Assembly (NCBI GenBank): GCA_017514235.1
Contig: JAFWKK010000042.1
Location: 73,483 to 137,482 of the forward strand
Length of the DNA stretch: 64,000 bases
Direction of reading: 5' to 3'
DNA from: Kiritimatiellia bacterium
GTDB lineage: Bacteria > Verrucomicrobiota > Kiritimatiellia > RFP12 > UBA1067
Numbering within the stretch: position 1 is the first letter of the stretch; every line of letters begins with the position of its first letter. A program made the position numbers and the translations under genes. The notes beneath the pieces were generated by a model. That model had not been told where the DNA came from and made no database searches. It saw nothing but the letters and a program-made list of their open reading frames with translations. Of this stretch, positions 28,751-64,000 are shown piece after piece.

Positions 28751-28780
28751 TTGACTTGATGTAACCAATAGGTTAAAATA
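28751..28780 (+). promoter_or_regulatory. sigma70-like promoter TTGACT-N18-TAAAAT at the island boundary
   Basis: clean -35/-10 pair in an AT-rich stretch, pointing into the first four-helix-bundle element. Confidence 0.45.
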
Positions 28781-28834
28781 CGCGTCAGACGGTTCGGATG
28801 ATAGTCATGTCATCTATGGACAAAATAGCTATTG

Positions 28835-28872
28835 TGAGGTATTCGGCTGCATACCCCACGGGCGCGGAGCGT
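28835..28872 (+). repeat. 38-nt conserved leader motif, copy 1 (identical to 45029-45066)
   Basis: TGAGGTATTCGGCTGCATACCCCACGGGCGCGGAGCGT, exact match to copy 2; contains the small hairpin GGTAT-TCGGCTGC-ATACC. Confidence 0.85.
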
Positions 28873-28874
28873 AT

Positions 28875-28932
28875 GCTTAGTTGGAGGTAGGAGTTGGAGT
28901 TGGAGGTAGGAGTTGGAGGTAGGAGTTGGAGG
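28875..28932 (+). repeat. purine-rich tandem array (unit about TTGGAGGTAGGAG, about 4 copies) upstream of four-helix-bundle gene 1
   Basis: direct repeats read from the sequence; roughly complementary to the array at 29305-29435. Confidence 0.85.
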
Positions 28933-29304
28933 ATGGAGGGGCAGGATTTTCAGTACAGGAATTTGATTGTGTGGCAAAAGGCCATGCGGTTCTCTAAAGC
29001 CGTTTATGCGCTGATCAATCAATTCCCCGTAGCAGAGAAGTATGCGCTTTCTGATCAGGTTCGTCGTGCGGCAGTGAGTGTTCCTAGCAACATTGCGGAA
29101 GGATGTGGACGCGCCTCAAATCGTGACTATGCTCATTTCCTGTCGATCGCACGTGGTTCATTGTATGAAACAATGACACAGCTGGAATTGGCACAATCGC
29201 TTGGATACATTGATGCTATCAAAGATATCGAAGAGTTGGCCTCGGAGATAAGTCGTATGCTAACAACATTGATGAAGAAATACACGCCGCTCTCCAAATC
29301 CTAA
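28933..29304 (+). CDS. four-helix-bundle protein (23S rRNA intervening-sequence protein / Avd-like family), copy 1
   Basis: IVWQKAMRFSKAVYALINQFP..EKYALSDQVRRAAVSVPSNIAEGCGRASNRDYAHFLSIARGSLYE..TQLELA is the hallmark of this family; the ORF track extends the start into the repeat array via TTG, and I prefer the ATG at 28933. Confidence 0.8.
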   Translation: MEGQDFQYRNLIVWQKAMRFSKAVYALINQFPVAEKYALSDQVRRAAVSVPSNIAEGCGRASNRDYAHFLSIARGSLYETMTQLELAQSLGYIDAIKDIEELASEISRMLTTLMKKYTPLSKS

Positions 29305-29435
29305 CTCTACCTCTCCCCTCCAACTCCACCTCTCCCCTCCAACTCCACCTCTCCCCTCCAACTCCACCTCTCCCCTCCAACTCCAACTCTCTCCTCCAAC
29401 TCCAACTCCAACTCTTTTCTCCAACTCATCTCCCC
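29305..29435 (+). repeat. pyrimidine-rich tandem array (unit about CTCCACCTCTCCCCTCCAA, about 4 copies, then CTCCAACTC variants) downstream of four-helix-bundle gene 1
   Basis: direct repeats; reverse-complement related to the upstream array (TTGGAGG versus CCTCCAA). Confidence 0.85.
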
Positions 29436-29687
29436 TTGAACACAATTGACCATATCGGCTCCGCGTTCTTGCGCCGTATCCTCCGCCGCATGAAGGAGAT
29501 GGGCGTGTCGCAGACGGAGCTTGCCAAGCGCATGAAGGTGTCCCGTCCGTATGTCACGAAGGTGCTGCACCGAGACGTGAACTTCTCGTTCAAGACGGCG
29601 GCTCGGCTTGCGGATGCGCTAAAGATGGACTTCTTTCCGGAGCTGCGTCCCAAGGAAGGTTCTTCGGTGCCCGATGAGGGCAAGTAA
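29436..29687 (+). CDS. XRE-family helix-turn-helix transcriptional regulator
   Basis: GVSQTELAKRMKVSRPYVTKVL is an HTH_XRE motif; the true start is probably an internal ATG near 29490, since the track start is TTG. Confidence 0.55.
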   Translation: MNTIDHIGSAFLRRILRRMKEMGVSQTELAKRMKVSRPYVTKVLHRDVNFSFKTAARLADALKMDFFPELRPKEGSSVPDEGK

Positions 29688-29945: not shown

Positions 29946-30000
29946 GCCCAGTGGTGTGTGCAGAATTTGCACATGCCACTATTCACGGTGCTGTTATCTG

Positions 30001-30054
30001 AAGAGTGTCCAATATCACCAACTCACTAACTCACCAACTCCCCCACTTCTATCC
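30001..30054 (+). repeat. orphan pyrimidine-rich short repeats (CCAACTCA-type) directly upstream of the wzx-1 start
   Basis: CACCAACTCACTAACTCACCAACTCCCCCACTTCTATCC-ATG; same flavour as the downstream arrays of the four-helix-bundle elements. Confidence 0.5.
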
Positions 30055-31608
30055 ATGTCCCCGAATCGCAGGATATTCCTGAACATCGTTGCCACGTACG
30101 GACGGAGTCTGTACACGCTGGTGGTAGGATTGTTCTGCGGTCGGTGGACGCTGATGGCGCTGGGGGAGGTCGATTACGGACTCATGGGAGTCGTTGGCGG
30201 ACTGATTGCCTTCGTGCAGTATTTCGACAGCATCTTGGCGAGTGCAATCGGAAGGTTCTTCGCCATTGCGGTCGGCGAAGGGAAGGCCGACCGGAAATCA
30301 GGCATTGAATCCGGCCGCAAGTGGTTCACTACAGCGGTGGTGATCCAAACGGCATTGCCGACTTTTCTTCTCATAACGTTCTATCCGGTCGGGGAGTGGG
30401 CCGTCAGGCATTTTCTGACGATTCCGCCGGACAGGGTTCAGGCGTGCGTGTGGGTGTGGAGATTCGTGTGCCTGTCAGGATATTTAGGCATGCTGACGAT
30501 GCCGTTCCGTTCCATGTACATGGCGCATCAATATATTGCGGAGCTTACATTTTATTCTTTTATGACTACTACGTTTAACGCCTGTTTTCTCTATTACATG
30601 GTAACGCATCCCGGCGTTTGGCTGGCCAAGTTCGCGTTCTGGCAATGTCTGCTTTCGATGTTGCCCGAATTGATCATCGCAATTAGGGCATATTTCCTTT
30701 TTCCGGAATGCAGAGTGGTAAGGCGGCACATTAGATGCTGGTGCAACATCAGGGCGATGGCGGGTTTTTCGCTGTGGACGGCAATCGGTACGCTGGGTGT
30801 CATTCTCCGCGGGCAGGGAATATCCATTCTCGTCAACAAGATTTATGGCTCGCGAGTCAATGCCGGCGTAGCGGTCGGTTATTCGCTTTCTAATCATTGC
30901 AACTCATTGACGGATAGCATGTTCAACGTATTTTCCCCTGCCATCTACAACGCCTGGGGTGAGAAAAATTACGACAAGGCGCGCAGCATGGCCTACCAGA
31001 TATGCAGGGTCGGCACGTTGTTTCTTCTTGTTTTCGCGCTTCCGCTTTCACTGGAAGTTGACGAGGTGCTGCGATTGTGGCTTAAGAATCCCCCGCAATA
31101 TGCCGCTGGGATCTTTCTTTTTGTCATGGCGTCAACGGTAATCGACAAGATGGCGGCCGGCCACATGATATGTGTCAGTGCCAGCGGCAAGGTCGCCGGA
31201 TACCAATCGTTTCTTGGCACGACGCTGATTTTGACGTTGCCGCTCGCATGGTTGCTTGTAAAGCTCGGCATGGGCGTATATTCCGTGGGTTGGGCGCTGG
31301 TGGCGACGATGGCGGTTTGTTCTTCGGGGCGGATTTGGTTCGCGAGACGGCTTGTAGGCATGAGCGGACGATACTGGATACGGAGTGTCGTCGTCCCGCT
31401 TTCGGGGGTTGTCGTTCTGTCTCTTTGCGTGGGGTCCTTGCCTCGATTTTTTCTGTCGGCCTCCCTTGCGAGAGTCTGTTTCACGGTGGGGGTCGTCGAA
31501 TTTTTCATGATTCCATTTTCATGGTTCTTCGTCTTGAGCGGCTCCGAGCGCGCTTTTGTGGTGTCGAGGGTTAATGCTGTCGTTTCAAAAATGAGGAGAA
31601 CGTGCTAA
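30055..31608 (+). CDS. polysaccharide biosynthesis protein / Wzx-like flippase (MOP superfamily), paralog 1
   Basis: about 14 predicted TM helices; N-terminal 60 aa nearly identical to the paralog at 35171. Confidence 0.65.
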   Translation: MSPNRRIFLNIVATYGRSLYTLVVGLFCGRWTLMALGEVDYGLMGVVGGLIAFVQYFDSILASAIGRFFAIAVGEGKADRKSGIESGRKWFTTAVVIQTALPTFLLITFYPVGEWAVRHFLTIPPDRVQACVWVWRFVCLSGYLGMLTMPFRSMYMAHQYIAELTFYSFMTTTFNACFLYYMVTHPGVWLAKFAFWQCLLSMLPELIIAIRAYFLFPECRVVRRHIRCWCNIRAMAGFSLWTAIGTLGVILRGQGISILVNKIYGSRVNAGVAVGYSLSNHCNSLTDSMFNVFSPAIYNAWGEKNYDKARSMAYQICRVGTLFLLVFALPLSLEVDEVLRLWLKNPPQYAAGIFLFVMASTVIDKMAAGHMICVSASGKVAGYQSFLGTTLILTLPLAWLLVKLGMGVYSVGWALVATMAVCSSGRIWFARRLVGMSGRYWIRSVVVPLSGVVVLSLCVGSLPRFFLSASLARVCFTVGVVEFFMIPFSWFFVLSGSERAFVVSRVNAVVSKMRRTC

Positions 31609-33782: not shown

Positions 33783-34798
33783 CACCGTTCTTCTCCATCG
33801 TCATTCCGGTCTACAACGTAGCGCCGTATCTGCGCGAGTGTCTTGATTCCGTCTTGGCGCAGACGTTCGCGGACTGGGAGGCGCTCTGCGTTGATGACGG
33901 TTCGACTGACGGTTCCGGGGCAATCCTCGACGAGTATGCGGCCAAAGATTCGCGAATCAAGGTGCTTCACACTGGGAATCGCGGAGTAAGCGCGGCAAGA
34001 AACTCCGGCATTGACGCGGCAAGCGGGGAGTACGTGACCTTTCTCGATGGAGACGATGCATATGAACGTTTTTGGCTCGAGAGCTTTTATGGGCTGATCA
34101 AGGAAACAGGGGCGGAACTTGTCCGGCTGCGAGTGAAGTTCTGGAATGGCGGGGCGCATGAAAGCGGTCTGGCGGTGGACCGTCCGCATCGAGCCTGCTT
34201 CGTCGGGGATGAAGTCGTGAGTTGGGGGTGCCCGACCTACTCGCTGGAGGGGTGGTCGTGGTTGAATGCCATAAGGAGATCGTGCTTGAACGGTGCGGTA
34301 CGGGTAAGGTTCCCGGTCGGCATGAAGTTCATGGAGGACAATGTTTTCATGATGAATGCGTTGCCTCATGTTCATGCGGCTTGCCAAGGCGAGGTCTCCG
34401 GTTATCTTTACAGGCAGCGGGCGACGTCCGTTTGCCTGGCAAGGAAAAGCGCCCAGGTGGTTGTTCGCCTCTTCGATGAAACTGTCCCGCTGTTCGCTGC
34501 GATGTCTGCGGCGAACCGGAAGTGTCTTTCGGGAATGCTCGGACGGTCGGTCCTTTATTGGTGTGAACGCAGGGACAGGGACGAAATCGGCGGCGCTGCA
34601 ATCGTCCGTGCCCGTATCGTGGCCGCCATGAAAGATTCGATGTTCCATGTTTCGGACATGCCGGTGAGGTGGCGGCTTGGGTTCGTGGCGATGTTGCATT
34701 TGCATTCGCTTCTTGTCATGGATTTGCTGTTGTTCCTGCAGCGTACCTGGGGTTGTGCAAGACGATTGCGGAAAGGTATAATACGCGGCAAACGTTAA
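33779..34798 (+). CDS. family 2 glycosyltransferase (conserved 5' module)
   Basis: FSIVIPVYNVAPYLRECLDSVLAQTFADWEALCVDDGSTDGS; 5' about 130 nt nearly identical to the GT2 genes at 41875 and 45498 and to the pseudogene at 43126. Confidence 0.8.
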   Translation: MTPFFSIVIPVYNVAPYLRECLDSVLAQTFADWEALCVDDGSTDGSGAILDEYAAKDSRIKVLHTGNRGVSAARNSGIDAASGEYVTFLDGDDAYERFWLESFYGLIKETGAELVRLRVKFWNGGAHESGLAVDRPHRACFVGDEVVSWGCPTYSLEGWSWLNAIRRSCLNGAVRVRFPVGMKFMEDNVFMMNALPHVHAACQGEVSGYLYRQRATSVCLARKSAQVVVRLFDETVPLFAAMSAANRKCLSGMLGRSVLYWCERRDRDEIGGAAIVRARIVAAMKDSMFHVSDMPVRWRLGFVAMLHLHSLLVMDLLLFLQRTWGCARRLRKGIIRGKR

Positions 34799-34886: not shown

Positions 34887-35129
34887 ATGAGCAGTAACGA
34901 TTTTTCTGAGAATCTCTTCTGGGATGCCGACCTGTCCGATCTTGATCTAGCCCGGAACAGGCGGTATGTCGTACAGCGAGTCATGGAGCGCGGAACCGTC
35001 ATCGACCTTTGTAAGATTTTTCATCTCTATGGCATGACTGGCGTTGTCGAAACGGCGAAAACGCTTCGTGCGCATGACCAGAGGGCCTTGTCTTTTGTCG
35101 CCTGTCGCGAATTTGTAAAGGGCATATAG
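34887..35129 (+). CDS. hypothetical 80-aa protein
   Basis: ORF placed between the two polysaccharide modules and preceded by promoter motifs; no family recognised. Confidence 0.35.
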   Translation: MSSNDFSENLFWDADLSDLDLARNRRYVVQRVMERGTVIDLCKIFHLYGMTGVVETAKTLRAHDQRALSFVACREFVKGI

Positions 35130-35130
35130 A

Positions 35131-35170
35131 ACTCACCCTCTCCCAACTCATAACTCACAACTTCCTCTCC
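35131..35170 (+). repeat. orphan pyrimidine-rich repeats (AACTCA-type) directly upstream of the wzx-2 start
   Basis: GAACTCACCCTCTCCCAACTCATAACTCACAACTTCCTCTCC-ATG. Confidence 0.45.
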
Positions 35171-36733
35171 ATGTCCCCTAACCGTCGAATCTTCTTGAAC
35201 ATTGTTGCCACGTACGGGCGGAGTTTGTATGCGTTGGTCGTTGGCTTGGTCACTGCAAGGTGGACATTACAGGCTTTGGGAGTTGTTGACTATGGACTTA
35301 TGGGAGTTGTAGGTGGTCTTACTGGGTTTATTTCTTTCTTTAACGGAATCTTGGCGGCTGCTGTCGGTCGGTTTTATGCAATATCGGTTGGCAAGGCGAG
35401 TGTAAAAGGACACGAACTTGAGGGACTGGATGAGTGCCATAAATGGTTTTCCACTGCTGTATTTTTGCACATGCTTGTGCCGACGATTTTAATTGTTGTT
35501 GGCTATCCTGTTGGCGTATGGGCTGTTAGAAACTTTCTAACCATTCCACCTGATCGTGTCTCTGATTGTGTTTGGGTATTTCGCTTTATGTGTGTGTCGT
35601 GTTATATATCAATGTTGACAGTTCCCGTAAATGCGATGTATACGGCCAAACAGTATATTGCCGAATTGACGATTTATTCTGTTGTTACAACGACGCTAAA
35701 TGCACTTTTCTTATATTATATGGTCTCGCATCCAGGCGTATGGCTGGCCAAGTTTATGTTTTGGACTTCGCTTCTGTCCATCGCACCAAATGTGATTATT
35801 TTCTTGCGTGGAGTTTTTCTGTTTAAGGAATGCAGGTTAATTCCCAGGTATCTGTTATCGTGGGCGCGAATCAAGCAGTTGGTATATTTTGTGGGAATGT
35901 GGACCTGCGGTGGTACAGCATGGCTGTTGAGAGTTCAGGGAATCAACATTCTCATTAACAAGTATTTTGGGGCAAAAGTGAATGCGGCTATGGCTATTGC
36001 GAATAGTGTAAATGCGCACACTAGAAGTTTGTCAGGATCCATGCTCGGTGCTTTATATCCTGCCATAACATCTGCCTATGGCGCAGGAGACCTTGAGCGC
36101 ATGCGAGCGTTGGCGTATCGTGCATCCAAACTTTCAGTGCTTTTTGTTTTGATTTTCATGTTGCCCATTGCGTTGGAGTTGGAGGAAGTTCTACGCGTTT
36201 GGCTGATAAACCCGCCTGAATATGTTTATGGGCTGTGTCTTTTGGTCTTTGCGGTAACTATTACTGATCAGATTACTATTGGCCAAATGATGGCAATAAA
36301 TACCAGAGGCAAGATACTTTGGCCCACTGTTTTCCAAAGTGGAAGTCTTCTTATGGGATTCCCACTTGCATGGTTGTTTTGCTGGGTAGGATTTGGGGTG
36401 TATTCTGTGGCGGTCGCATTGTTGATTTCGATGTTCAGCTGTTCGGCCTGGAGGATATGGTTTGCGCGTGGTTTGGTCTCCATGTCTTCTTGGTACTGGA
36501 TAAAGAGAATATTGATACCAGTAGTCCTTTGCGCATTGATTAGCGCGGTAATCGGATGGATGCCTCGTCTGTTCATGCCGCCATCACTTTATCGGATTGT
36601 TGTTGCGGGACTTGTCAGCGACGTGATTCTTCTTGCGTTAGCTTGGCTTGTTTTGCTTGATGGAGACGAACGAGAATTCCTAAGAGGGCGGTTTAGCCTA
36701 TTGTACAGAAACTTAAAGGCGAGAATGAAGTAA
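35171..36733 (+). CDS. polysaccharide biosynthesis protein / Wzx-like flippase, paralog 2
   Basis: MSPNRRIFLNIVATYGRSLY... same N-terminus as the 30055 gene; multi-TM. Confidence 0.65.
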   Translation: MSPNRRIFLNIVATYGRSLYALVVGLVTARWTLQALGVVDYGLMGVVGGLTGFISFFNGILAAAVGRFYAISVGKASVKGHELEGLDECHKWFSTAVFLHMLVPTILIVVGYPVGVWAVRNFLTIPPDRVSDCVWVFRFMCVSCYISMLTVPVNAMYTAKQYIAELTIYSVVTTTLNALFLYYMVSHPGVWLAKFMFWTSLLSIAPNVIIFLRGVFLFKECRLIPRYLLSWARIKQLVYFVGMWTCGGTAWLLRVQGINILINKYFGAKVNAAMAIANSVNAHTRSLSGSMLGALYPAITSAYGAGDLERMRALAYRASKLSVLFVLIFMLPIALELEEVLRVWLINPPEYVYGLCLLVFAVTITDQITIGQMMAINTRGKILWPTVFQSGSLLMGFPLAWLFCWVGFGVYSVAVALLISMFSCSAWRIWFARGLVSMSSWYWIKRILIPVVLCALISAVIGWMPRLFMPPSLYRIVVAGLVSDVILLALAWLVLLDGDEREFLRGRFSLLYRNLKARMK

Positions 36734-42879: not shown

Positions 42880-42957
42880 TGTTTTGTTGTTATGCGCGGA
42901 CATCCGCTGATTGAGAGTTTGGTGTAAGAAGTTTGTAAGTTGGGGAGTGGGGAGTTT

Positions 42958-42974
42958 GAACCACGAAATACACT
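42958..42974 (+). repeat. 17-bp direct repeat TGAACCACGAAATACAC (copy 1; copy 2 at 43422-43438)
   Basis: exact duplicate flanking the GT2 pseudogene fragment. Confidence 0.7.
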
Positions 42975-43125
42975 AAATACACGAAAGAGAAAATCAACCC
43001 CTAGGATTATGTTGCACGGACATAATGTTTTTCGGCATAATATTCGATTCAAAGGCAGAAACGAAGATTAAACACCATTAAATTAATGGCGGTTAAATAA
43101 TGAGGTTTTTGAGTATTGCCGTTTT

Positions 43126-43412
43126 TTTCCATAATCATCCCGGTCTATAACGTCGCGCCCTATCTGCGCGAGTGCCTGAATTCCGTCTTGTCGCAGACGT
43201 TCGCCGATTGGGAGGCGATCTGCGTTGACGATGGTTCGACCAACGGGTTCTGGCTCGATTCTTGATGAATATGCTACATGTGACTGGTGATTCCGTGTCA
43301 TCCACCAGCTCAACGCCGGTGTTAGCGCGGACAGAAATGCCGGCATGTTAAATGCGGTTGGCGAATACATTACATTTCTGGACGGAGATGATGTGTATGA
43401 TCCGGGCGTCAG
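43126..43412 (+). pseudogene. GT2 glycosyltransferase remnant (5' module only, frameshifted, no start codon)
   Basis: nucleotide-level match to the GT2 5' module (PFFSIIIPVYNVAPYLRECLNSVLSQTFADWEAICVDDGST) then frameshift and stop; truncated at the second TGAACCACGAAATACAC repeat. Confidence 0.7.
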
Positions 43413-43421
43413 GGGTCGGTC

Positions 43422-43438
43422 TGAACCACGAAATACAC
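43422..43438 (+). repeat. 17-bp direct repeat TGAACCACGAAATACAC (copy 2)
   Basis: see copy 1. Confidence 0.7.
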
Positions 43439-43519
43439 GAAAAGGGGAAGATCGAGAGTTAGATAATGGCGTAAAATCAGCGATTGACAAGTCGGATTTC
43501 GTTGTGATATAACTCTTGT

Positions 43520-43590
43520 GCAATGAAAAATTGAGTGAGGTAATGAGTTAGTGGGGAAGGGAGGATTTGAGTGGTGGGGACTTCAAGTGG
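43520..43590 (+). repeat. orphan purine-rich repeat patch (TGAGTGAGGTAATGAGTTAGTGGGGAAGGGAGG...)
   Basis: reverse complement resembles the CT-rich repeats upstream of wzx-1. Confidence 0.35.
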
Positions 43591-43602
43591 GTTGCCAAGG
43601 CG

Positions 43603-43666
43603 GCGGATTTTACGGCGGAAGTGGAAAAACGGCGGCGTTTTTTACGGTTGCGCCGTAAAATCCGCC
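43603..43666 (+). promoter_or_regulatory. perfect 16-bp inverted repeat GGCGGATTTTACGGCG ... CGCCGTAAAATCCGCC (plus a partial third copy) upstream of the ATPase gene promoter
   Basis: seen directly; possible operator or terminator hairpin. Confidence 0.5.
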
Positions 43667-43687
43667 GTTGCGTTAGGGCGGCTGATA

Positions 43688-43696
43688 TAGTATAAT
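43688..43696 (+). promoter_or_regulatory. extended -10 TAGTATAAT, 8 nt upstream of the ATG at 43704 (leaderless)
   Basis: motif recurs elsewhere in the window. Confidence 0.45.
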
Positions 43697-43703
43697 ACGC
43701 ACC

Positions 43704-44864
43704 ATGGGCATAAAAAGAAAGTTGAAAGATGCCGAAGGCAGTTATTTCTTATTCGGTCCGCGTGGAACGGGCAAGACGACCTGGCTCGATGAAAATCTAT
43801 CAGATGCCATTCGGATATCGCTGCTTGACGCTGCAACTAAGCGGGAGCTTCGATCTTATCCCGAACGACTGGAGAATTATATAGGCGGAGCAAAAGACAA
43901 GACGGTTGTTATTGACGAGGTGCAGCGCGCGCCTGAACTGTTGAGTGTCGTTCATCGCCTCATGGATGAAAAACGCGGGTTGAGGTTTGTGATGACTGGA
44001 TCCAGTGCCCGCAAGCTCAAGCGAAACGCTTCTGCCGATTTGCTTGCCGGACGGGCTATAAAGAGGATGTGCCACCCGTTTCTGGCATCGGAGATGGGCG
44101 AAGCATTCCGGCTGGAGGAGGCTTTGCGACTTGGCATGATACCCTTGGTTCGCTATCCTGAAAGTGGTACAAGCGAAGATGTGCTCAAGACGTATCTCGA
44201 TTTGTATCTTGAAGAGGAAATCACGACAGAGGGTGTGATTCGAAACCTTGACTCGTTCTCGAGGTTCTTGCAAGTGGCAAGCTTCTCGCACGGAAGCGTT
44301 CTGTCGGCAAGTTCCATTGCTCGTGAATCCGGCATAAAACGTTCCACGATCGACTCGTATTTTGACGTCTTGGAGGAAATGCTTGTCGCGTCCAGACTGC
44401 CGGTGTTCAACAAAAGAGCCAAGCGTCAGTTGATAGGGCACGACAAATTCTATTTTTTCGATACTGGAGTGTTTAGGTCGCTTCGTCCCAAAGGGCCACT
44501 GGACAATCCAAATGAGATTGACGGCGTGAGTCTTGAAGGCTTGGTTTATCAGCAGCTGAAAGCATGGAACGATTACCTTGTCGAGCCTAATTCACTGTAT
44601 TTCTGGCGAACGAAGAACGGCGTCGAGGTTGATTTTGTCGTTTACGGCGAGAACACGTTTTTTGCGCTGGAAGTGAAGAACTCCTGCTATGCGGAGCGCA
44701 AAGATGCGCAGTCGCTCGAATCGTTCGTTTCCGATTATCCGGAAGCACAAGCATTGCTCCTCTACCGAGGGGGGCAGGTTCAGCAAGTTTCGCCGCATGT
44801 TAAGGTGATGCCCGTTGAAGAGTTCCTGCTGGGACTTGATCCTTCAAAACCTTTGCACTTTTGA
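43704..44864 (+). CDS. ATP-binding protein (AAA domain plus DUF4143-type C-terminus)
   Basis: Walker A FGPRGTGKTT, Walker B VVIDEVQ; architecture of the common AAA_14/DUF4143 proteins. Confidence 0.65.
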   Translation: MGIKRKLKDAEGSYFLFGPRGTGKTTWLDENLSDAIRISLLDAATKRELRSYPERLENYIGGAKDKTVVIDEVQRAPELLSVVHRLMDEKRGLRFVMTGSSARKLKRNASADLLAGRAIKRMCHPFLASEMGEAFRLEEALRLGMIPLVRYPESGTSEDVLKTYLDLYLEEEITTEGVIRNLDSFSRFLQVASFSHGSVLSASSIARESGIKRSTIDSYFDVLEEMLVASRLPVFNKRAKRQLIGHDKFYFFDTGVFRSLRPKGPLDNPNEIDGVSLEGLVYQQLKAWNDYLVEPNSLYFWRTKNGVEVDFVVYGENTFFALEVKNSCYAERKDAQSLESFVSDYPEAQALLLYRGGQVQQVSPHVKVMPVEEFLLGLDPSKPLHF

Positions 44865-44972
44865 GTGGAAGAGTGGGGGATTTTGAGCCGTGACGGGGAA
44901 ATCTGCGCCGCGATTCCGTGCGTCGCTTCCGCCCGGTGGTTCGAGAATTGATTCACATGGCGCGGGAAAAAA

Positions 44973-44981
44973 TGGTATAAT
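44973..44981 (+). promoter_or_regulatory. extended -10 TGGTATAAT upstream of four-helix-bundle element 2
   Basis: about 45 nt upstream of the conserved 38-nt leader. Confidence 0.45.
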
Positions 44982-45028
44982 ACACAACAAGCGATGGACT
45001 TGCGAAAGGACGTGTTCGGGTCGTCGTA

Positions 45029-45066
45029 TGAGGTATTCGGCTGCATACCCCACGGGCGCGGAGCGT
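45029..45066 (+). repeat. 38-nt conserved leader motif, copy 2
   Basis: exact match to 28835-28872. Confidence 0.85.
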
Positions 45067-45104
45067 CTTGTCAGTAGTCGGGGGTCAGGGGCCAGAGGAT
45101 AGAG
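45067..45104 (+). repeat. purine-rich short array (GGGGGTCAGGGGCCAGAGGATAGAGG) upstream of four-helix-bundle gene 2
   Basis: complementary in character to CCTGACTCC repeats downstream. Confidence 0.55.
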
Positions 45105-45461
45105 GTGGTTAAGACTTATAAAGAGTTAGTGGCTTGGCAAAAGGGGATGTCGCTTGTGAAAGCCGTCTATGCTTTAGTGAAACGGTTCCCAAAAGTTGAG
45201 CAATATCGACTTGTTGACCAGTTGACGCGTGCTGCAGTCAGTGTGCCATCTAACATTGCAGAGGGATTCGGTAGGGCTACCAACAAAGATTTCGCACACT
45301 TCCTGTCGCAGGCTCGAGGCTCGCTGTTTGAAGTAGAGACGCAGTTGTTGATAGCAAAGGATCTTGGATTTGTTGGTGATGTAACGTCAGAGCTTGAACT
45401 ATCTTCCGAACTTGGGAAGATCCTAAATGGTCTCATACGTAAACTACTCCCTGTCCCCTAA
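45105..45461 (+). CDS. four-helix-bundle protein (23S rRNA IVS protein / Avd-like family), copy 2
   Basis: LVAWQKGMSLVKAVYALVKRFPKVEQYRLVDQLTRAAVSVPSNIAEGFGRATNKDFAHFLSQARGSLFEVETQL; GTG start. Confidence 0.8.
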   Translation: MVKTYKELVAWQKGMSLVKAVYALVKRFPKVEQYRLVDQLTRAAVSVPSNIAEGFGRATNKDFAHFLSQARGSLFEVETQLLIAKDLGFVGDVTSELELSSELGKILNGLIRKLLPVP

Positions 45462-45497
45462 CTCCTGACTCCTGTCTCCTGACTCCTGCCCCCTAAA
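45462..45497 (+). repeat. pyrimidine-rich short array (CTCCTGACTCCTGTCTCCTGACTCCTGCCCC) downstream of four-helix-bundle gene 2 and directly before the GT2 start
   Basis: seen directly. Confidence 0.6.
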
Positions 45498-46535
45498 ATG
45501 CCTTTCTTCTCCATCATCATCCCGGTCTACAATGTCGCGCCCTATCTGCGCGAGTGCTTGGACTCTGTCTTGGCGCAGTCATTTGCAGATTGGGAAGCGA
45601 TCTGTGTCGATGACGGTTCGACTGATGATTCAGGCGCGATTCTAGATGAATATGCGGCGAAGGATCCGCGCTTTCATGTTATCCATCAGCAAAATGCAGG
45701 TGTCAGCGCCGCAAGAAACAAGGCGCTTGAAGTCGTTGCAGGGAAATGGTTTCTTTTTCTGGATGGTGATGATTTACTTTATAGCGATGCTCTGGAAGTT
45801 TTTATTCCATATATAAGATATGATGATGTTGATGGGATTCTTGTGCATCCATATACTTCTTCTTGGGATGGGAATGGTGTCCCACAACGAAATTGTGTTG
45901 TCGATGTTCTTGTGAAAGATGCTTCAAAGGAAGATTTATTCATAGGACCGTATGCGGCAAATGGTTTTTCATTTTCGCGTATTTATTCCACAAGAATATT
46001 TAGGCACTTACGTTTTAGGGAAGACATGTCCATGTCGGAAGATGTTTGTTTTTGGTTTGATGCTTTAAGCGTTACTGCGCGGTGGATGATATTGCGTGCG
46101 GAATATTATCTTTATCGTCAACGGGGCGATTCTGTGTGTGGGGAAAACGATCCACATAAATGCGGACAGATTCTGGAATCCGTTTTACATGCGCTTAATG
46201 TAATTGACAAACGGCTTGATGTTTCTAAATCTGCTGGAGCTAGATATTTGAGGCGTTTCCCGTCGTCTCCAAGATATTATATTGGTCTTGCCGTATGCAG
46301 ATATAAAGAACTTACTGATGAGGAATGGGATGATTTGTCGAATAAAGTAAAAGCCATTGATGCTATATGTGGGCGATGGTCATTGGGTGTTTTTGTCAAT
46401 TTATTAATGGCGTTTGCGGTAAATAGACGATTGCGTTTCGTGCTGCCAATATTGCTAAGAATGAGTAATTGCTATGATTGTCTGAGAATTCAAGTTGGTG
46501 GATTGTCACGAAAATTAGGTTTTATAAGAAGATGA
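45498..46535 (+). CDS. family 2 glycosyltransferase (conserved 5' module)
   Basis: FSIIIPVYNVAPYLRECLDSVLAQSFADWEAICVDDGSTDDS. Confidence 0.8.
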   Translation: MPFFSIIIPVYNVAPYLRECLDSVLAQSFADWEAICVDDGSTDDSGAILDEYAAKDPRFHVIHQQNAGVSAARNKALEVVAGKWFLFLDGDDLLYSDALEVFIPYIRYDDVDGILVHPYTSSWDGNGVPQRNCVVDVLVKDASKEDLFIGPYAANGFSFSRIYSTRIFRHLRFREDMSMSEDVCFWFDALSVTARWMILRAEYYLYRQRGDSVCGENDPHKCGQILESVLHALNVIDKRLDVSKSAGARYLRRFPSSPRYYIGLAVCRYKELTDEEWDDLSNKVKAIDAICGRWSLGVFVNLLMAFAVNRRLRFVLPILLRMSNCYDCLRIQVGGLSRKLGFIRR

Positions 46536-47275: not shown

Positions 47276-48343
47276 ATGAAGAGACTGTTGGAGATATCTG
47301 AATATGTTGAGGATGTGAAGCGTGTCGCATCTTTCGATTTGCCGTGGGAGAAACTACGTGATAAGACAATTCTCATAACGGGTGGCACGGGTCTTATCGG
47401 AAGCTTTTTGGTCGATGTGTTAAATGCTGCAAGACTTGATTGCAAGGTATTGTTATTTGGTCGGTCAGAAGAAAGGGCGAAAACTCGTTTCGCTGAATAC
47501 TGGGATAAGGGGTGGATTCATTTTGTGAAGTGGGATTCGAGTGAGGGGTTTGAGAGGTTTGACGAGTTTGAAGAGTTTGAGAAGTTCGATTATATGTTGC
47601 ACCTTGCCAGCAATACACATCCAGTGGCGTACGCAACGGATCCGATTGGCACGATAACGACGAATGTTATTGCGCTCAATAATCTGCTGGCGTTGGCGGC
47701 GGAGAAGTGTGCGACGAGGTTCTTGTTCGCATCTTCAAATGAAATTTACGGAGAGAATCGGGGGGATGTGGAGCTGTTTGATGAGAAGTACTGTGGTTAC
47801 ATAGATTGCAACACGTTGCGGGCAGGGTATCCAGAGTCAAAGCGTTGTGGCGAAGCATTATGTCAGGCGTACATAAGGCAAAAGAACTTGGATTGCGTCA
47901 TTGCGCGTTTGACTCGCACTTATGGACCAACGATTCTGTCGACTGACACCAAGGCCATTAGCCAGTTCTTCAACAACGCACTCAAAGACGAAGACATTGT
48001 CTTGAAGAGCGAAGGGAAGCAATATTATTCTTATCAATATGTTGTAGATTCGGTGTCGGGCCTCATGACTGTGTTGCTTAAGGGTGACTGCGGTGCTGCG
48101 TACAATATCGCCGATGAATCCAGCGACATTACGCTTCGCGATCTTGCCGCGTTGATCGCCAAGCAAGCTGGGCGCAAGGTTGTGTTTGATCTGCCTGATG
48201 CGGTTGAAGCTGCAGGTTTCAGCAAGGCTACAAAGGCTAGGCTGGATGGTGCTCGGTTGCGTGCGCTTGGCTGGTTGCCATCATATGACATTAAAAGCGG
48301 TGTGATGCGAAATTATTGTGTGCTTAAGAAATCTCGGGCATGA
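47276..48343 (+). CDS. NAD-dependent epimerase/dehydratase (extended SDR)
   Basis: ILITGGTGLIGSFLV Rossmann motif and a YxxxK region; about 355 aa. Confidence 0.75.
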   Translation: MKRLLEISEYVEDVKRVASFDLPWEKLRDKTILITGGTGLIGSFLVDVLNAARLDCKVLLFGRSEERAKTRFAEYWDKGWIHFVKWDSSEGFERFDEFEEFEKFDYMLHLASNTHPVAYATDPIGTITTNVIALNNLLALAAEKCATRFLFASSNEIYGENRGDVELFDEKYCGYIDCNTLRAGYPESKRCGEALCQAYIRQKNLDCVIARLTRTYGPTILSTDTKAISQFFNNALKDEDIVLKSEGKQYYSYQYVVDSVSGLMTVLLKGDCGAAYNIADESSDITLRDLAALIAKQAGRKVVFDLPDAVEAAGFSKATKARLDGARLRALGWLPSYDIKSGVMRNYCVLKKSRA

Positions 48344-55156: not shown

Positions 55157-56764
55157 ATGATGAAGCGGATCCCATCTTTCTCCCTTTTTGCTCTTTCGAT
55201 TGTCATCTTCGTGTTGATGACGGCTGATGTGTATTCCCGCTTTGGTGGGATTTCTGCTTTGGGTTGGAAGCAATGTGTCGTTTGGTGGGCGTTCCTTTTA
55301 GCGCCGGCATTTGTCCTTGGGCGCTTCTCGCGGTTTTTCTATGTCCTTGTCCTCTTCTACATTTTTCTTGTCACTGCGGTCAGTATGTACATTAGATGTG
55401 TGTTCTCGATGTCAATTGGTGGCGATTGGCTGTTAATTGTGATGAATTCGAACAAATCGGAAATACTGAATTTCTTGAGTGGGATGATGTGCGTTAGATC
55501 GTTTCTTGTACTAACAGCGGTTCTTTGCTTGCTGCTGGGTGTATGTCTGCTTGCATGGAAGACGCGATATCCGCGTTGTTCTAAATTGTCCTCATCAATT
55601 GCCATTGCACTAATTGTACCTGTCGTTCTATTGGATGTTATCCATGTGCAATGGCGGAATGGCCTTTTTTATATGAATTTTACGAACGTCATTAGACAGA
55701 CTAAGCGCAGTCATGACTCGTTTGCCGGGTTAATACGGGCTGTCAACCATCCAAACCTGCCTGATCAATTGCCGCTGTCGCTAAACGGCGATAATCCACC
55801 GCTTGGGGTGATAATTATAGGCGAATCAGCTACGCGGAATCACTGGAGCCTTTATGGCTATAAAGCACGAGATACGACGCCGTGTTTGAACTCCATCTCA
55901 AACGAGATTTATGTGTTTAAGGATGTAGTTGGGTGTTGGTCTGCAACCGCAGATGCCTGTAGGTATCTTCTGACCGATACGCTAATTGAGGATGAGCGCT
56001 TGGCAAGTTGCACGCTGCCAGATGTTTATCGCCGTGCTGGATATGATTGCGTATTCTACACGATGTCGCCAGAACCTGGAACAGGATATTATGATGTGCT
56101 GGATGCGTTGTTTCGCACCTGCAGCACGAATGTTTATCTGAACACGCGTGATATCTTGCATCCTGTACTAGACGATGCTTTGCTTCAGCATTTTAAACTG
56201 GAGGTAGAGTCGCGGCGCGATGAATCGCATCCGTCCATTCTTTTCTTTCAGCTTGGCGGATGCCATTATCCATATGATCGTTGGTATCCTGCGGACGAGA
56301 ATGTCTTTGGCGCCGGGCCGTCTGACAGTGTGATCCACTATGACAACGCTGTTCGCTTCGACGACAGGATAATCGGAGAAATGATGCAGATTATAAGGCG
56401 TGAGAACCGACCGGTTTTCGTGTTTTATATTTCTGATCATGGAGAGACTCCAGATTCTTTGCATTGGCGTAATTTCCCTGATCGTGATCTTTGGGAGCTT
56501 CCAATGTTTATTTGGTATTCACCGCAGTATGCAAAATGTTATCCGGATATTGTAGCGCAAACGGCGGCGGCGGTGAATCTTCCGTTGCAAAGCGACCAAC
56601 TCTTCTTCGGCCTTGTATCGATGGCACGGGTCGCAAGCACTGACATACCAAGTTATGCGAAAAGCAAAGACTTTCTTTCGCGCGAGTTTAAGATACGTGA
56701 AAAGCGCCTGGTCCTTAAGAAGAAATATGTCTATCGGAAAGATGGAGGAAGAGAGTTAAAATGA
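55157..56764 (+). CDS. phosphoethanolamine transferase (sulfatase superfamily, EptA/EptB-like)
   Basis: N-terminal five-TM region followed by a sulfatase domain (IIGESATRNHWSLYGY, HYDNAVRFDD). Confidence 0.7.
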   Translation: MMKRIPSFSLFALSIVIFVLMTADVYSRFGGISALGWKQCVVWWAFLLAPAFVLGRFSRFFYVLVLFYIFLVTAVSMYIRCVFSMSIGGDWLLIVMNSNKSEILNFLSGMMCVRSFLVLTAVLCLLLGVCLLAWKTRYPRCSKLSSSIAIALIVPVVLLDVIHVQWRNGLFYMNFTNVIRQTKRSHDSFAGLIRAVNHPNLPDQLPLSLNGDNPPLGVIIIGESATRNHWSLYGYKARDTTPCLNSISNEIYVFKDVVGCWSATADACRYLLTDTLIEDERLASCTLPDVYRRAGYDCVFYTMSPEPGTGYYDVLDALFRTCSTNVYLNTRDILHPVLDDALLQHFKLEVESRRDESHPSILFFQLGGCHYPYDRWYPADENVFGAGPSDSVIHYDNAVRFDDRIIGEMMQIIRRENRPVFVFYISDHGETPDSLHWRNFPDRDLWELPMFIWYSPQYAKCYPDIVAQTAAAVNLPLQSDQLFFGLVSMARVASTDIPSYAKSKDFLSREFKIREKRLVLKKKYVYRKDGGRELK

Positions 56765-59574: not shown

Positions 59575-60867
59575 ATGTTTCGTAGGGTAATTTATCAGGC
59601 AAAGTGGCGCTTGCATCATCCGACGGCGTTCGCACGGTTTGCCGATATTATGGCGAATCTCGAGAAGTCGTCTGGCCAGCTTGCTGCCGAACAGGAAGTG
59701 GCACGGCAGAGAATAGTTCGCCATGCGATGGCCCATACTGTTTTTTACAGGGAGAAATATACGGACGCGGGCTTTGGGTTGTCCGACATCGGCAGACAGG
59801 GGTGGTTCGAGAAGTTGCCGATAGTGACTAAGAATGACCTTCGCGAACGCTTCGCCGATTTCGTCGATACAGATCGGCGGCAGTTCTTGGCTGTCTCGAC
59901 TACCGGCGGTTCTACGGGTGTGCCCACCAAGACAGGCTACGACAGGCGCATTCCCGAAGAAGTTTATTCATGGCGGCTCCAGTCGTGCTACGGCGTCCAT
60001 CCTTGGGACGACCATGCATACGTGTGGCGGGATACGCGGCGTTCGAAGTGGGCGAAGTTGAAGAATGCCGCCGCATGGTGGCCGACGCGCCACCTGAAAC
60101 TCGATGCCACGTTGCTGAGCGACGCTGCGATGGATGAATTTATTGAGAAGTTCAATCGTCTGAAGCCTTGCCTGCTGCAGGGATATGTGGGCGCAGTTTC
60201 GCAGCTTGCGGAATATATGCTCAAGTCAGGCAAGGCCATTGCCTTGTCACCGAAAGTCGTATGGACCACCTCGGCCCCTCTGTCGGAAGTTCAGAGACGC
60301 CTGATTGAGACGGCTTTTGGCGCTCCGGTGTGCGATGAGTACGGTAGCTGCGAGTGCCGCTGGATAGCCTTTCAGCGGCCTGGGCATGAAGGATTGCGCG
60401 TCAATACGGAGCATGTGCATATAGAGTTTTTGCCAGACCAGGGCGGAGATGGGCATGGATATGGTCGGACGCTTTTGACCAATCTTGAAGATACGGTTTT
60501 TCCATTGATCCGCTACGAGAACGGCGACCGTGGCCGTTGGCTTGACTATCCCTACATTGATTCGGTAAAGGGACGGGAAGTGGAGTCGTTTGTCCTCACG
60601 TCGGGGAAAGTGGTCAACGGCGAATACCTCACAACGATCTTCGACGAGTCGCCGGATTTGGTGTATGGCTTTAGGGCCGTACAGCATGCGGATCTTAGCA
60701 TAACGATCGAGTACATTCCGGCGAAGGATGAGGGCAAGGTGCTGGAAGTCCTGCAGAAATTCGCGGACAAGATCGAAGGCGACGCCGTCGTTGACTTCAA
60801 ACGCGTCGACCAAATCTCGCATGACAGAGGCAAGCTTCGCTTTGTAGTGCGGGAAGTGAAAGGTTGA
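59575..60867 (+). CDS. CapK-like adenylate-forming enzyme (phenylacetate-CoA ligase / F390 synthetase family)
   Basis: length and motif pattern (STTGGSTGVPT adenylation motif, C-terminal region) of PaaK/CapK-like proteins in capsule loci. Confidence 0.6.
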   Translation: MFRRVIYQAKWRLHHPTAFARFADIMANLEKSSGQLAAEQEVARQRIVRHAMAHTVFYREKYTDAGFGLSDIGRQGWFEKLPIVTKNDLRERFADFVDTDRRQFLAVSTTGGSTGVPTKTGYDRRIPEEVYSWRLQSCYGVHPWDDHAYVWRDTRRSKWAKLKNAAAWWPTRHLKLDATLLSDAAMDEFIEKFNRLKPCLLQGYVGAVSQLAEYMLKSGKAIALSPKVVWTTSAPLSEVQRRLIETAFGAPVCDEYGSCECRWIAFQRPGHEGLRVNTEHVHIEFLPDQGGDGHGYGRTLLTNLEDTVFPLIRYENGDRGRWLDYPYIDSVKGREVESFVLTSGKVVNGEYLTTIFDESPDLVYGFRAVQHADLSITIEYIPAKDEGKVLEVLQKFADKIEGDAVVDFKRVDQISHDRGKLRFVVREVKG

Positions 60868-60931
60868 GAGGTTCGAGAGGTTTGGGCGGTTTGAGAAGTT
60901 CGAAAGTTCGAGAGTTTGAAAGTTTGAGAGT
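60868..60931 (+). repeat. purine-rich tandem array (GTTYGAGAG units) upstream of four-helix-bundle gene 3
   Basis: GTTGAGAGGTTCGAGAGGTTTGGGCGGTTTGAGAAGTTCGAAAGTTCGAGAGTTTGAAAGTTTGAGAGT; begins at the stop codon of the CapK-like gene. Confidence 0.8.
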
Positions 60932-61321
60932 ATGGCAACAATAAAACGATTCACCGATATCGTTGCGTGGCAAAAGAGCCGCGAGATGGTAAAGCGGATT
61001 TACGAGTTGACTCGGCGTGAGCCATTCTCCAGAGATTGGGGATTGAAGGATCAGATACAGCGAGCTTCAGTAAGCATATGCAGCAACATCGCTGAAGGAT
61101 TTGAACGGAGCGGGGACAAGGAGTTCGTGAATTTTCTCTGGATTGCAAAAGGATCAGTAGGGGAAGTAGCCTCCCAATTGTACAATGCAAAGGATTGCGG
61201 GTACGTTGATGAAGAAGACTTCATTTCGTTGCAAGAAGATCTGAAGTTGTTGAGTGCAATGCTTTATAGCTTAATTCGGTCAATGAAAACTTCATCCTTG
61301 AAAGGTGAGCGATATAAGTAA
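60932..61321 (+). CDS. four-helix-bundle protein (23S rRNA IVS protein / Avd-like family), copy 3
   Basis: IVAWQKSREMVKRIYELT...DQIQRASVSICSNIAEGFERSGDKEFVNFLWIAKGSVGEVASQL. Confidence 0.8.
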   Translation: MATIKRFTDIVAWQKSREMVKRIYELTRREPFSRDWGLKDQIQRASVSICSNIAEGFERSGDKEFVNFLWIAKGSVGEVASQLYNAKDCGYVDEEDFISLQEDLKLLSAMLYSLIRSMKTSSLKGERYK

Positions 61322-61457
61322 CCTTCAAACTTTCAAACTTTCAAACCTTCAAACTTTCAAACTTTCAAACCTTCAAACTCTCAAACTTTCAAACCTTCAA
61401 ACTCTCAAACTTTCAAACCTTTCGAACCTTCAAACCTCCCAAACTTTCCACCCTCCC
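61322..61457 (+). repeat. pyrimidine-rich tandem array (CTTTCAAAC/CTCTCAAAC units, about 14 copies) downstream of four-helix-bundle gene 3
   Basis: reverse-complement relationship to the upstream GTTTGAGAG array. Confidence 0.85.
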
Positions 61458-62921: not shown

Positions 62922-64000
62922 AGGTCCTGCACGTCATCTCATCTATTCATCGTTCGTCCGGCGGGCCGTCAAGGTCGGTTCAGGGACTGGCGGCCGCAGA
63001 GTGCCGCGCAGGCGTAGATGCCGGAATCTTCACGTTCCGGCATGGCGACAAGCCGTGGGTGGACGGCATTTCGTTCGTTCATTCAGGGGTGGAGATAGAT
63101 TCTGAACTGCTGGAGTTCAAGCCAGACATTGTGCATCTGCACGGACTGTGGAATCGCAGGCTTCATCGTGCTGCGGTCGCTTGCCGAAAGTTGGGGGTTC
63201 CGTATGTCATTGCGCCGCGAGGGATGCTTGAGCCGTGGAGCCTGAAGCAGAAGTGGCTCAAGAAACGGATTGCTCGATTCCTTTACCAGGATAGGGATCT
63301 GCGGTGCGCCGCAGCGCTCCATGCCACGGCAGAGAGCGAAGCGGAGCAGTTTAGGCGCATGGGGTTCAAGAATCCAGTAATCATCAGCCCCAATGGCGTC
63401 AATCCTCCCAACCTCCCACCCACTCTCCCACTCCAACTCAAACCTCCAACTCAAAATCTCCAACTCCAACTAAAAACTCCAACTAACACTAACCTCCAAC
63501 TCCCACTCAAAACTCCAACTCAAACCCTCCAACTCCAACTCAAGACTCCAACTAATACTAAAAGAACCTTGTTCGTGAGCCGGATGCATCCGAAGAAGGG
63601 TGTGATGGAGCTGGTCGAGGCCTGGGGAAGTTTAGTGGCTAGTGCTGAGTGGTTGGTGCGGAACGGTTGGAAGTGTGAGTTGGTGTATACGGTTAGCGGG
63701 GAACTTGAGAAGGGGTATGAGGCGAAGGTAAAGGCGAGGGTTAAGGAGCTGGGGCTGGAGGATAAGTTCATATTTACCGGCGCGCTGAATGACGACGAGA
63801 AGTGGGAGGCGTATGCGAGAGCGGACCTGTTCGTGCTGCCGACCTACAGCGAGAACTTTGGAATAGTGGTTGCCGAGGCGCTTTATGCCGGCGTGCCGGT
63901 AATCACCACAAAGGGCACTCCCTGGCAGGAACTGGAGACCGAGAGTTGCGGTTGGTGGATTGACGTTGGAGAGGATGCGTTGGCTGATGCTTTGACAAAG
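62918..64000 (+). CDS. family 4 glycosyltransferase, 3'-partial, with in-frame repeat insertion
   Basis: GTG start overlapping the upstream stop (GTGA); KVLHVISSIHRSSGGPSRSV...; C-terminal GT4 motifs EXFG (YSENFGIVVAEALYAGVPVI); runs off the window end, so it is absent from the ORF track. Confidence 0.75.
   Translation, partial: MKVLHVISSIHRSSGGPSRSVQGLAAAECRAGVDAGIFTFRHGDKPWVDGISFVHSGVEIDSELLEFKPDIVHLHGLWNRRLHRAAVACRKLGVPYVIAPRGMLEPWSLKQKWLKKRIARFLYQDRDLRCAAALHATAESEAEQFRRMGFKNPVIISPNGVNPPNLPPTLPLQLKPPTQNLQLQLKTPTNTNLQLPLKTPTQTLQLQLKTPTNTKRTLFVSRMHPKKGVMELVEAWGSLVASAEWLVRNGWKCELVYTVSGELEKGYEAKVKARVKELGLEDKFIFTGALNDDEKWEAYARADLFVLPTYSENFGIVVAEALYAGVPVITTKGTPWQELETESCGWWIDVGEDALADALTK
63404..63575 (+). 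repeat. pyrimidine-rich CTCCAACTC-type tandem array embedded in-frame in the GT4 gene
   Basis: translates in the GT4 frame as NLPPTLPLQLKPPTQNLQLQLKTPTNTNLQLPLKTPTQTLQLQLKTPTNTK without stops, between the ISPNGVN and KRTLFVSRMHPKKG domain-boundary motifs. Confidence 0.8.

Follow-up and report, generated by a model that had tools for sequence, protein, structure and literature searches.

Each of the two putative flippase genes, wzx-1 and wzx-2, in the polysaccharide locus of the analysed stretch of DNA (64,000 nt; hereafter the window) is led by a short tract that carries no G on the sense strand and runs directly into the ATG. The feature is real and non-random. With slightly better than even confidence, we propose that both tracts are solo downstream arms of PF05635 hairpin cassettes, either footprints of former cassettes or ectopic copies of arm sequence, which would now act as open leaders devoid of a Shine-Dalgarno (SD) motif. 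The preliminary description of this DNA had quoted one leader sequence for each gene, and both were found in place, with each run terminating in the ATG of its gene. The two tracts and a small hairpin next to the first of them are located as follows.

30008–30054, + strand: wzx-1 leader, an orphan G-free array of the downstream-arm type that makes up the whole leader; ATG at 30055.
35130–35170, + strand: wzx-2 leader, an orphan G-free array that makes up the whole leader, directly after the DUF6922 stop codon; ATG at 35171.
29950–29980, + strand: 13-bp hairpin between the stop codon of TM75 (a 75-aa membrane-protein gene) and the wzx-1 array.

The products of wzx-1 and wzx-2 are paralogous membrane proteins of 517 and 520 aa with 50% identity. 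The label Wzx, under which both genes had been described, is plausible in view of weak MatE/MOP matches and of the JGI name for some of the homologues ('O-antigen/teichoic acid export membrane protein'). As to membership of a MOP/Polysacc_synt family, one homologue barely passed the MatE cut-off and no NCBIfam model matched.

The G-free run of the wzx-1 tract spans positions 30008–30056 (49 nt) and contains CACCAACTCACTAACTCACCAACTCCCCC at 30017–30045, and that of the wzx-2 tract spans positions 35130–35172 (43 nt), with GAACTCACCCTCTCCCAACTCATAACTCACAACTTCC at 35129–35165. Periodicity is weak in both leaders according to Tandem Repeats Finder (period 8 at 30015–30040 and period 7 at 35140–35162). 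In 200 dinucleotide-preserving shuffles of positions 28001–64000, which served as the null for homogeneous runs, 0.015 G-free runs of at least 40 nt were expected, versus five observed (148, 145, 105, 49 and 43 nt), and the longest G-free run in any of the shuffles was 44 nt. The coding strand is G-rich, with a GC skew of +0.12 to +0.29, and the G-free runs stand out further against it. The paired motif AACTC-N2-4-AACTC was observed four times versus 0.31 expected, with three of the four inside the wzx-1 and wzx-2 leaders.

RNA folding predicted both leaders to be single-stranded with no local partner, which rules out an upstream-arm partner close to either of them. Formation of H-DNA or a triplex was also ruled out, since the tracts are G-free but contain about 30% A and hence are not homopyrimidine, and so was recent gene conversion between the two leaders, given that the synonymous sites of the adjacent codons have diverged. 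No Rfam family was found in the window, rRNA included, at gathering thresholds, and none at permissive E-values over the leader, the arms and the 37-nt motif described below. The 13-bp hairpin at 29950–29980 has two G-U pairs and no U-tail, and lies 27 nt before the wzx-1 leader array.

Three ORFs in the window (28933–29304, 45105–45461 and 60932–61321) encode four-helix-bundle proteins of the PF05635/TIGR02436 family ('23S rRNA intervening sequence protein', here IVP), which show weak similarity to Avd. Each ORF is tightly bracketed by a G-rich tandem-repeat arm upstream and a complementary C-rich, G-free tandem-repeat arm downstream, and the three cassettes are referred to as elements 1–3.

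28877–28941, + strand: element 1 upstream arm of GGAGTTGGAGGTA repeats; no other part of the window pairs better with the wzx-1 leader as RNA.
28933–29304, + strand: element 1 PF05635/TIGR02436 gene (Pfam E = 9e-40; NCBIfam match).
29290–29435, + strand: element 1 downstream arm of AACTCCACCTCTCCCCTCC repeats, G-free; ends at the HTH start codon, 29436.
45067–45493, + strand: element 2, with upstream arm, PF05635 gene (45105–45461) and downstream arm of CCTGACT repeats.
60861–61457, + strand: element 3, with upstream arm, PF05635 gene (60932–61321) and downstream arm of AACTTTCA repeats up to the Wzy-like ATG, 61458.

In the predicted RNA structures the arms pair around the ORF, with z values of −4.7, −1.0 and −7.3 for elements 1, 2 and 3, respectively, and the duplex between the upstream arm of element 1 and its own downstream arm reaches −72 kcal/mol. 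The arm sequence is not the same among the three elements. In elements 1 and 3, the upstream arm reaches only about half the length of its downstream counterpart. All three downstream arms reach to within 0–4 nt of the start codon of the next gene, that of element 2 stopping 4 nt before the GT2 ATG at 45498. The G-rich upstream arms also provide an SD-like GGAG/GAGG just before each IVP start codon (28933, 45105 and 60932), and the C-rich downstream arms contain a CCUCC-like sequence resembling an anti-SD, so that the IVP start region would be sequestered in the folded hairpin.

The orphan tracts share a repeat unit with the arms of element 1 and resemble the downstream arms of all three cassettes in polarity and position. 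The heptamer CCAACTC occurs in 32 copies in the window versus 7.75 expected, and 23 of these lie in the arms of element 1, the wzx-1 leader (two copies), the wzx-2 leader (one copy) and an array inside a GT4 glycosyltransferase gene. In a duplex scan of the window, no segment paired better with the wzx-1 leader than the upstream arm of element 1 (z = −5.9). The tracts share their repeat unit with an intact cassette of the same locus and, as in elements 1–3, are G-depleted on the sense strand and abut a start codon, with the reservation that likeness among low-complexity arrays may be convergent. Beside the wzx-1 and wzx-2 tracts, no IVP coding remnant was found by tblastn with 83 IVP proteins, which matched only the three intact genes; a tblastn cluster at 56546–56653 lies inside a sulfatase/EptA-like ORF and was dismissed as coincidental. 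Since the leaders are predicted to be single-stranded locally and have no IVP remnant adjacent to them, they are, judged by their sequence, true orphans of the downstream-arm type. Three purine-rich patches are orphans of the upstream-arm type. These patches are listed here together with two arrays that lie within genes.

63399–63543, + strand: downstream-arm-type G-free array of the CCAACTC family, 145 nt, in frame inside the GT4 glycosyltransferase gene.
47539–47590, + strand: upstream-arm-type purine-rich tandem array, in frame inside an epimerase/dehydratase gene.
43522–43580, + strand: purine-rich patch of the solo upstream-arm type, C-free; upstream of an AAA_14/DUF4143 ATPase cassette.
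42908–42960, + strand: second solo purine-rich patch, C-free, 53 nt; 29 nt past the GT2 stop codon and followed by the junction repeat GAACCACGAAATACAC.
44859–44887, + strand: third purine-rich patch, C-free, 29 nt; overlaps the ATPase stop codon.

C-free runs of at least 50 nt were expected 0.055 times in the same shuffles of 28001–64000 and were observed three times (65, 59 and 53 nt). The purine-rich patch that had been noted at 43520–43590 as a counterpart of the leaders was confirmed as a C-free run of 59 nt (43522–43580), and it is complementary to the wzx-2 leader (−39.4 kcal/mol, z = −4.9), being among the best partners of that leader; its complementarity to the wzx-2 leader and to the GT4 array alike has a z of about −5. 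The third patch repeats, in direct orientation (TTTGAGTGG...GGGGA), the last part of the patch at 43522–43590. The region 42880–45100 is a rearranged junction, in which the break of a GT2 pseudogene fragment (~43120–43420) coincides with a sequence similar to the element 2 upstream arm, and in which the 16-mer GAACCACGAAATACAC occurs at 42958 and 43423, both copies just past a G-rich stretch. The AAA_14/DUF4143 ATPase cassette has its own TATAAT box right at the ATG and direct purine-rich repeats on either side (43563–43590 and 44856–44887).

The preliminary description held that in every case in the locus such an array abuts the start codon of the next gene. This is true of five arrays (start codons at 29436, 30055, 35171, 45498 and 61458); a sixth, the array at 63399–63543, breaks the rule by lying in frame within the GT4 gene. 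It encodes PPNLPPTLPLQLKPPTQNLQLQLKTPTNTNLQLPLKTPTQTLQLQLKTPTNTK at an inter-domain linker, and its predicted duplex with the upstream arm of element 1 amounts to −66.5 kcal/mol. The array in the epimerase/dehydratase gene encodes SSEGFERFDEFEEFEKFD and contains a 15-mer, GTTTGAGAAGTTCGA, that recurs 13 kb away in the upstream arm of element 3. These two in-frame arrays point to a process of spreading or slippage for which no cassette has to decay, and this counts against decay as the source of solo arms. Because they sit where cassette decay is unlikely, we do not claim a pure footprint origin for the wzx leaders.

All arrays in the first part of the locus lie downstream of a conserved promoter and leader motif, copies of which recur in the window and in other loci.

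28751–28872, + strand: conserved locus promoter TTGACT-17-TAAAAT (28751–28779) and 37-nt leader motif (28836–28872), upstream of all arrays in that part of the locus.
L009:451, L018:461, L045:4394, L059:672, L078:893, L081:554 and L082:78: copies of the promoter/37-nt motif in other fetched loci; a diverged copy lies at L165:55–95.

The σ70-like promoter at 28751–28779 was the best match of a consensus scan in the region. The near-invariant 37-nt motif, GAGGTATTCGGCTGCATACCCCACGGGCGCGGAGCGT, contains a small hairpin, is not in Rfam, and was found in nine copies, namely two in the window (28751–28872 and 44973–45066) and seven in the other fetched loci. The layout of these leaders is a TTGACT-17-TAAAAT promoter or an extended −10 (TGgTATAAT), then 50–95 nt, then the 37-nt motif. 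What lies downstream of the motif varies, being an IVP cassette, an ORF-less hairpin or the first gene directly. In L078 the HTH gene comes straight after the motif, so that element 1 of the window is an insertion into that leader. The motif could be an antitermination element or one that recruits a NusG paralogue. Immediately upstream of either orphan tract, the scan found no consensus promoter, the only candidate nearby being an extended −10 before the DUF6922 gene; the tracts are therefore most likely internal to the operon transcript.

How general is the architecture of elements 1–3? A search with the three window IVPs against one genome per GTDB species yielded 80 PF05635 loci, which span Bacteroidota, Verrucomicrobiota/Kiritimatiellae, Acidobacteriota, Planctomycetota, Proteobacteria, Clostridia, Chloroflexi and CPR. 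Whole-flank RNAduplex energies for these loci were dominated by GC content and uninformative, and were replaced by local complementarity relative to a mismatched-pair null. On this measure, flank complementarity exceeds the 99th percentile of the null in 42 of the 80 loci and the null maximum in 14. Clear arms are present in 45 loci, where the upstream arms average 36% G and 12% C and the downstream arms 36% C and 12% G. The G-rich-upstream/C-rich-downstream polarity is common to 36–38 of these 45 elements, and the median distance from the end of the downstream arm to the next start codon is 5.5 nt. That the arms are oriented in this way with respect to transcription speaks for selection acting on the RNA. 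In four loci, an ORF-less hairpin or a solo arm has the same repeat unit as a neighbouring intact cassette that is no more than 2.5 kb away.

L085:4164–4304, L133:89–220, L134:907–1597 and L084:4947–4972: ORF-less hairpins or solo arms near an intact PF05635 cassette (Verrucomicrobiota, Planctomycetota, Ignavibacteria).

In L104, pyrimidine arrays lie on both sides of the IVP gene. A description of this polar-arm architecture outside rRNA was not found in the literature searched.

The main rival to the solo-arm reading, to which we give a low but not negligible probability, is that the short pyrimidine tracts usual just 5′ of start codons in these loci expanded on the spot by slippage. The orphan tracts would then be unoccupied or ancestral leaders, next to which PF05635 cassettes land and evolve a matching upstream arm. 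Short pyrimidine tracts do precede homologous starts that have no array, as with 'ccctttcccctGTG' before the HTH gene of L078, 'ctttcctccatactttgtttATG' in L164 and the many wzx starts of the form '...cttcccATG'; the arms are tandem repeats of near-identical units, indicating recent expansion; their sequence is cassette-specific, as expected if each matches its own site; and the two-sided arrays of L104 fit as well. The empty site in L078, however, holds only 11 nt of pyrimidines versus the 146-nt arm in the window. Local slippage alone also does not predict that the units of the orphans match the arms of element 1 and the GT4 array of the same locus, or that one unit recurs at separate sites in other genomes.

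The surroundings of wzx homologues were compared in 80 loci from a metagenome scan and in 13 further contigs, which comprise the four closest relatives of wzx-1 and nine further contexts. A G-poor array directly before the ATG is present in only about 8–10 of these more than 90 loci. The array-led genes are scattered on a neighbour-joining tree and their nearest neighbours have no arrays. No such array precedes any of the four closest wzx-1 relatives (70–79% identity; from a collection of 5.8 billion proteins), and the nine further contexts have no leader array either. The preliminary description had pointed to relatives as the place where intact elements might be found at these positions; no intact cassette lies directly upstream of a wzx homologue in the 80 metagenome loci and 13 contigs, nor do the flanks examined contain an intact IVP gene. 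In L051, an ORF-less purine/pyrimidine hairpin fills an HTH–wzx gap homologous to that of the window, with its downstream arm abutting the wzx ATG. The loop of this hairpin translates to REALEDRTARYAVEVP, which gives a weak, short match (E about 5) to the IVP motif ALSDQxRRAAVSVP; it matches this motif, weakly, at one and the same position in many IVPs. Further ORF-less hairpins occur in L007 and L081.

Given this scatter and the lack of arrays in the closest relatives, the tracts are not a conserved 5′-UTR or regulatory leader of wzx. The related proposal of a selected wzx-specific 5′-UTR, a binding site for a protein or an sRNA that is inherited with the flippase gene, is accordingly one that we regard as improbable. 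It has in its favour that both paralogues carry an array, that the wzx-2 leader has an exact 19-mer, CAACTCATAACTCACAACT, in common with the leader in L008 that fronts a truncated wzx 5′ end, and that a CCCACTTC motif recurs near the ATG in wzx-1 of the window and in L010, L020 and L061. Apart from the sporadic distribution, what speaks against a wzx-specific element is that similar arrays precede the HTH, GT2 and Wzy genes and even lie inside the GT4 ORF, and that no Rfam family matches.

The 19-mer marks the leader/wzx junction as a recombination-prone site. In four loci, a second, complete wzx is preceded by a leader array and a truncated copy of the wzx 5′ end.

L008:445–545, L061:1570–1862, L060:1800–1820 and L016:571: remnants of the wzx 5′ end (MSPNRR...), of which some have a G-free leader.

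This arrangement suggests that the junction of leader and wzx 5′ end is a recombination breakpoint for cassette exchange. A different module, ...GGTAGGGGCGGCAGTCCCYTGCCGCCCGCACGGRWTYCGGCCGTGTAGA..., occurs in tandem copies 100–300 nt upstream of wzx in higher-GC contigs (L016, L019, L022, L024, L025, L048 and L057), and poly-C/TACCCC arrays are found near these modules.

The preliminary description had offered two alternatives for the arrays, namely 5′-UTR elements of the downstream gene, or footprints of IVS-like elements that lost the ORF and the upstream half. The second is the better supported of the two, owing to the common CCAACTC unit, the polarity, the abutment on start codons and the ORF-less hairpins in relatives; what weakens it is that no intact cassette precedes wzx in more than 90 loci and that the in-frame arrays show that arms can also arise without decay on site. 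The first survives in a weak sense only, in that the arrays lie downstream of the locus promoter and form the whole SD-less start region; as an element belonging to wzx it is contradicted by the scatter over the tree and the absence at 70–79% identity.

SD-like motifs precede about half of the window genes and are absent at all five array-led starts. These five are also the five most accessible of the 34 starts in the locus, with a predicted unpaired probability of 0.87 versus 0.50 (p = 3.6e-6), largely because of their G-free composition. Many database calls for wzx homologues (P0002, P0003, P0012 and others) are 482–485 aa long and begin at the equivalent of Met-34, thereby missing the conserved N-terminus MSPNRRIFLN, probably because the true start has no SD motif.

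The same composition raises the question of Rho. The tracts may be Rho-loading (rut-like) sites, which would make downstream expression dependent on prompt translation initiation or on antitermination recruited at the 37-nt motif. Zero G, many YC dimers and an unpaired state are rut-like, the arrays occupy intergenic junctions in a polysaccharide operon that is very long and co-directional, long operons of this kind commonly need antitermination by a NusG paralogue, and nine copies of a near-invariant leader motif are known, each behind a promoter. The orphan tracts are, however, marginal in length (43–49 nt versus ~70–80 nt for a typical rut site), and every functional step here would be inferred, so that we doubt this reading strongly; it is in any case compatible with a solo-arm origin and does not replace it. 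Long-range RNA pairing of the orphan arrays with distant G-rich arms (the upstream arm of element 1 or the purine-rich patches at 42908, 43522 and 44859), which would couple the processing or expression of distant parts of the operon, is highly improbable: the element 1 upstream arm and the patch at 43521–43580 are among the best duplex partners (z = −4.9 to −5.9), but the downstream arm of element 1 is a far better and much closer partner of its upstream arm, the candidate partners lie 1–35 kb apart, coding segments score alike (34201–34260), and complementarity of G-rich and C-rich low-complexity tracts is to be expected.

Under the preferred solo-arm reading, the course of events can be pictured as follows. 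An intact cassette consists of a G-rich arm, a gene for a PF05635 four-helix-bundle protein and a complementary C-rich, G-free arm that extends up to the next start codon. By analogy with the intervening sequences (IVSs) of 23S rRNA, its long stem is probably cut by RNase III, after which the gene downstream would be headed by a G-free leader. The two wzx genes have the C-rich half alone, which would be due either to deletion of the upstream arm and ORF or to the copying in of arm sequence. Transcription of both tracts would proceed, as part of the operon, from the conserved promoter and leader upstream. With neither a G nor a local partner, the tracts presumably do not fold and would form constitutively open, SD-less initiation regions. 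The tracts are sporadic and lineage-specific.

The orphan tracts are best filed as the solo half of an IVS-like hairpin cassette that resides in mRNA instead of rRNA. In Coxiella, the 23S rRNA IVS forms a 28-bp stem around an S23p ORF and is cut by RNase III (PMC4990558). The intact cassettes resemble the IVSs with an S23p/PF05635 ORF in the 23S rRNA of Leptospira and Coxiella in having terminal complementary sequences and a long stem around a PF05635 gene. They differ in lying in mRNA leaders or intergenic gaps of a polysaccharide operon rather than in rRNA helix 45, and in having as arms tandem repeats of up to 146 nt that are polar, with G enriched on the 5′ side and C on the 3′ side. The orphan tracts are the 3′ half only, with no ORF and no stem; of the hallmarks of the IVS type, they have neither an insertion in a 23S rRNA helix (9, 25 or 45) nor a terminal stem nor a PF05635 ORF in the loop, and the long terminal stem is a feature of the intact elements 1–3 alone.

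Three other kinds of known element invite comparison. Neisseria Correia elements, which are hairpin MITEs cut by RNase III, and the similar ERIC/REP elements of enterobacteria are short, ORF-less, intergenic inverted-repeat elements that are co-transcribed with flanking genes. The ORF-less hairpins in L007, L051, L081, L085 and L133 are like them in this respect. Correia and ERIC/REP elements, however, have a conserved consensus and terminal inverted repeats recognised by a transposase, whereas the arms described here vary between copies, are built of tandem repeats and are strongly strand-polar. SD-independent, unstructured leaders are known from the CA-rich enhancers of E. coli and from the SD-less initiation in Bacteroidota. 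The G-free C/A/U leaders of the window agree with them in lacking an SD motif and in their maximal predicted start-codon accessibility; unlike in such systems, initiation without an SD motif is no general rule in the window, where SD-like motifs precede about half of the remaining genes. With Rho utilisation sites, finally, the tracts have in common a C-rich, G-poor and predicted unstructured RNA in untranslated gaps of a long operon, the length being the point of difference.

If the leaders are indeed solo arms of IVS-like cassettes, an element class known from fragmented 23S rRNA would also reside in protein-coding operons of many phyla, and the half-sites that it leaves behind would become the translation-start regions of neighbouring genes. 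This would give surface-polysaccharide loci a concrete source of SD-less leaders and of sensitivity to RNase III or Rho, would explain gene-caller errors such as the annotation of many wzx homologues from Met-34, and would give a handle on the function of the very common PF05635/four-helix-bundle proteins. The orphan tracts alone are a modest finding, and more is to be gained from the polar architecture in general and from the conserved leader motif. A more far-reaching proposal, for which our expectation is small, is that PF05635 (Avd-like) cassettes are a widespread operon-invading class whose polar arms are functional RNA modules, generated and kept complementary by active copying and able to move on their own, with the ORF left behind, even into reading frames of other genes. 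C-rich arms standing alone would then be portable SD-less initiation regions or Rho-loading sites that rewire polysaccharide operons under the 37-nt motif.

The polysaccharide locus itself contrasts with its surroundings. The window is part of a metagenome scaffold. Positions 1–28000 have 64% GC, and from ~28.9 kb a co-directional polysaccharide locus follows with 45–52% GC, so that GC content drops sharply between 1–28000 and 28000–64000, and the locus has a strong positive GC skew. Drop and skew are consistent with horizontal acquisition of the whole polysaccharide locus. The nearest relatives of the window IVPs are found in Verrucomicrobiota/Kiritimatiellae MAGs from rumen.
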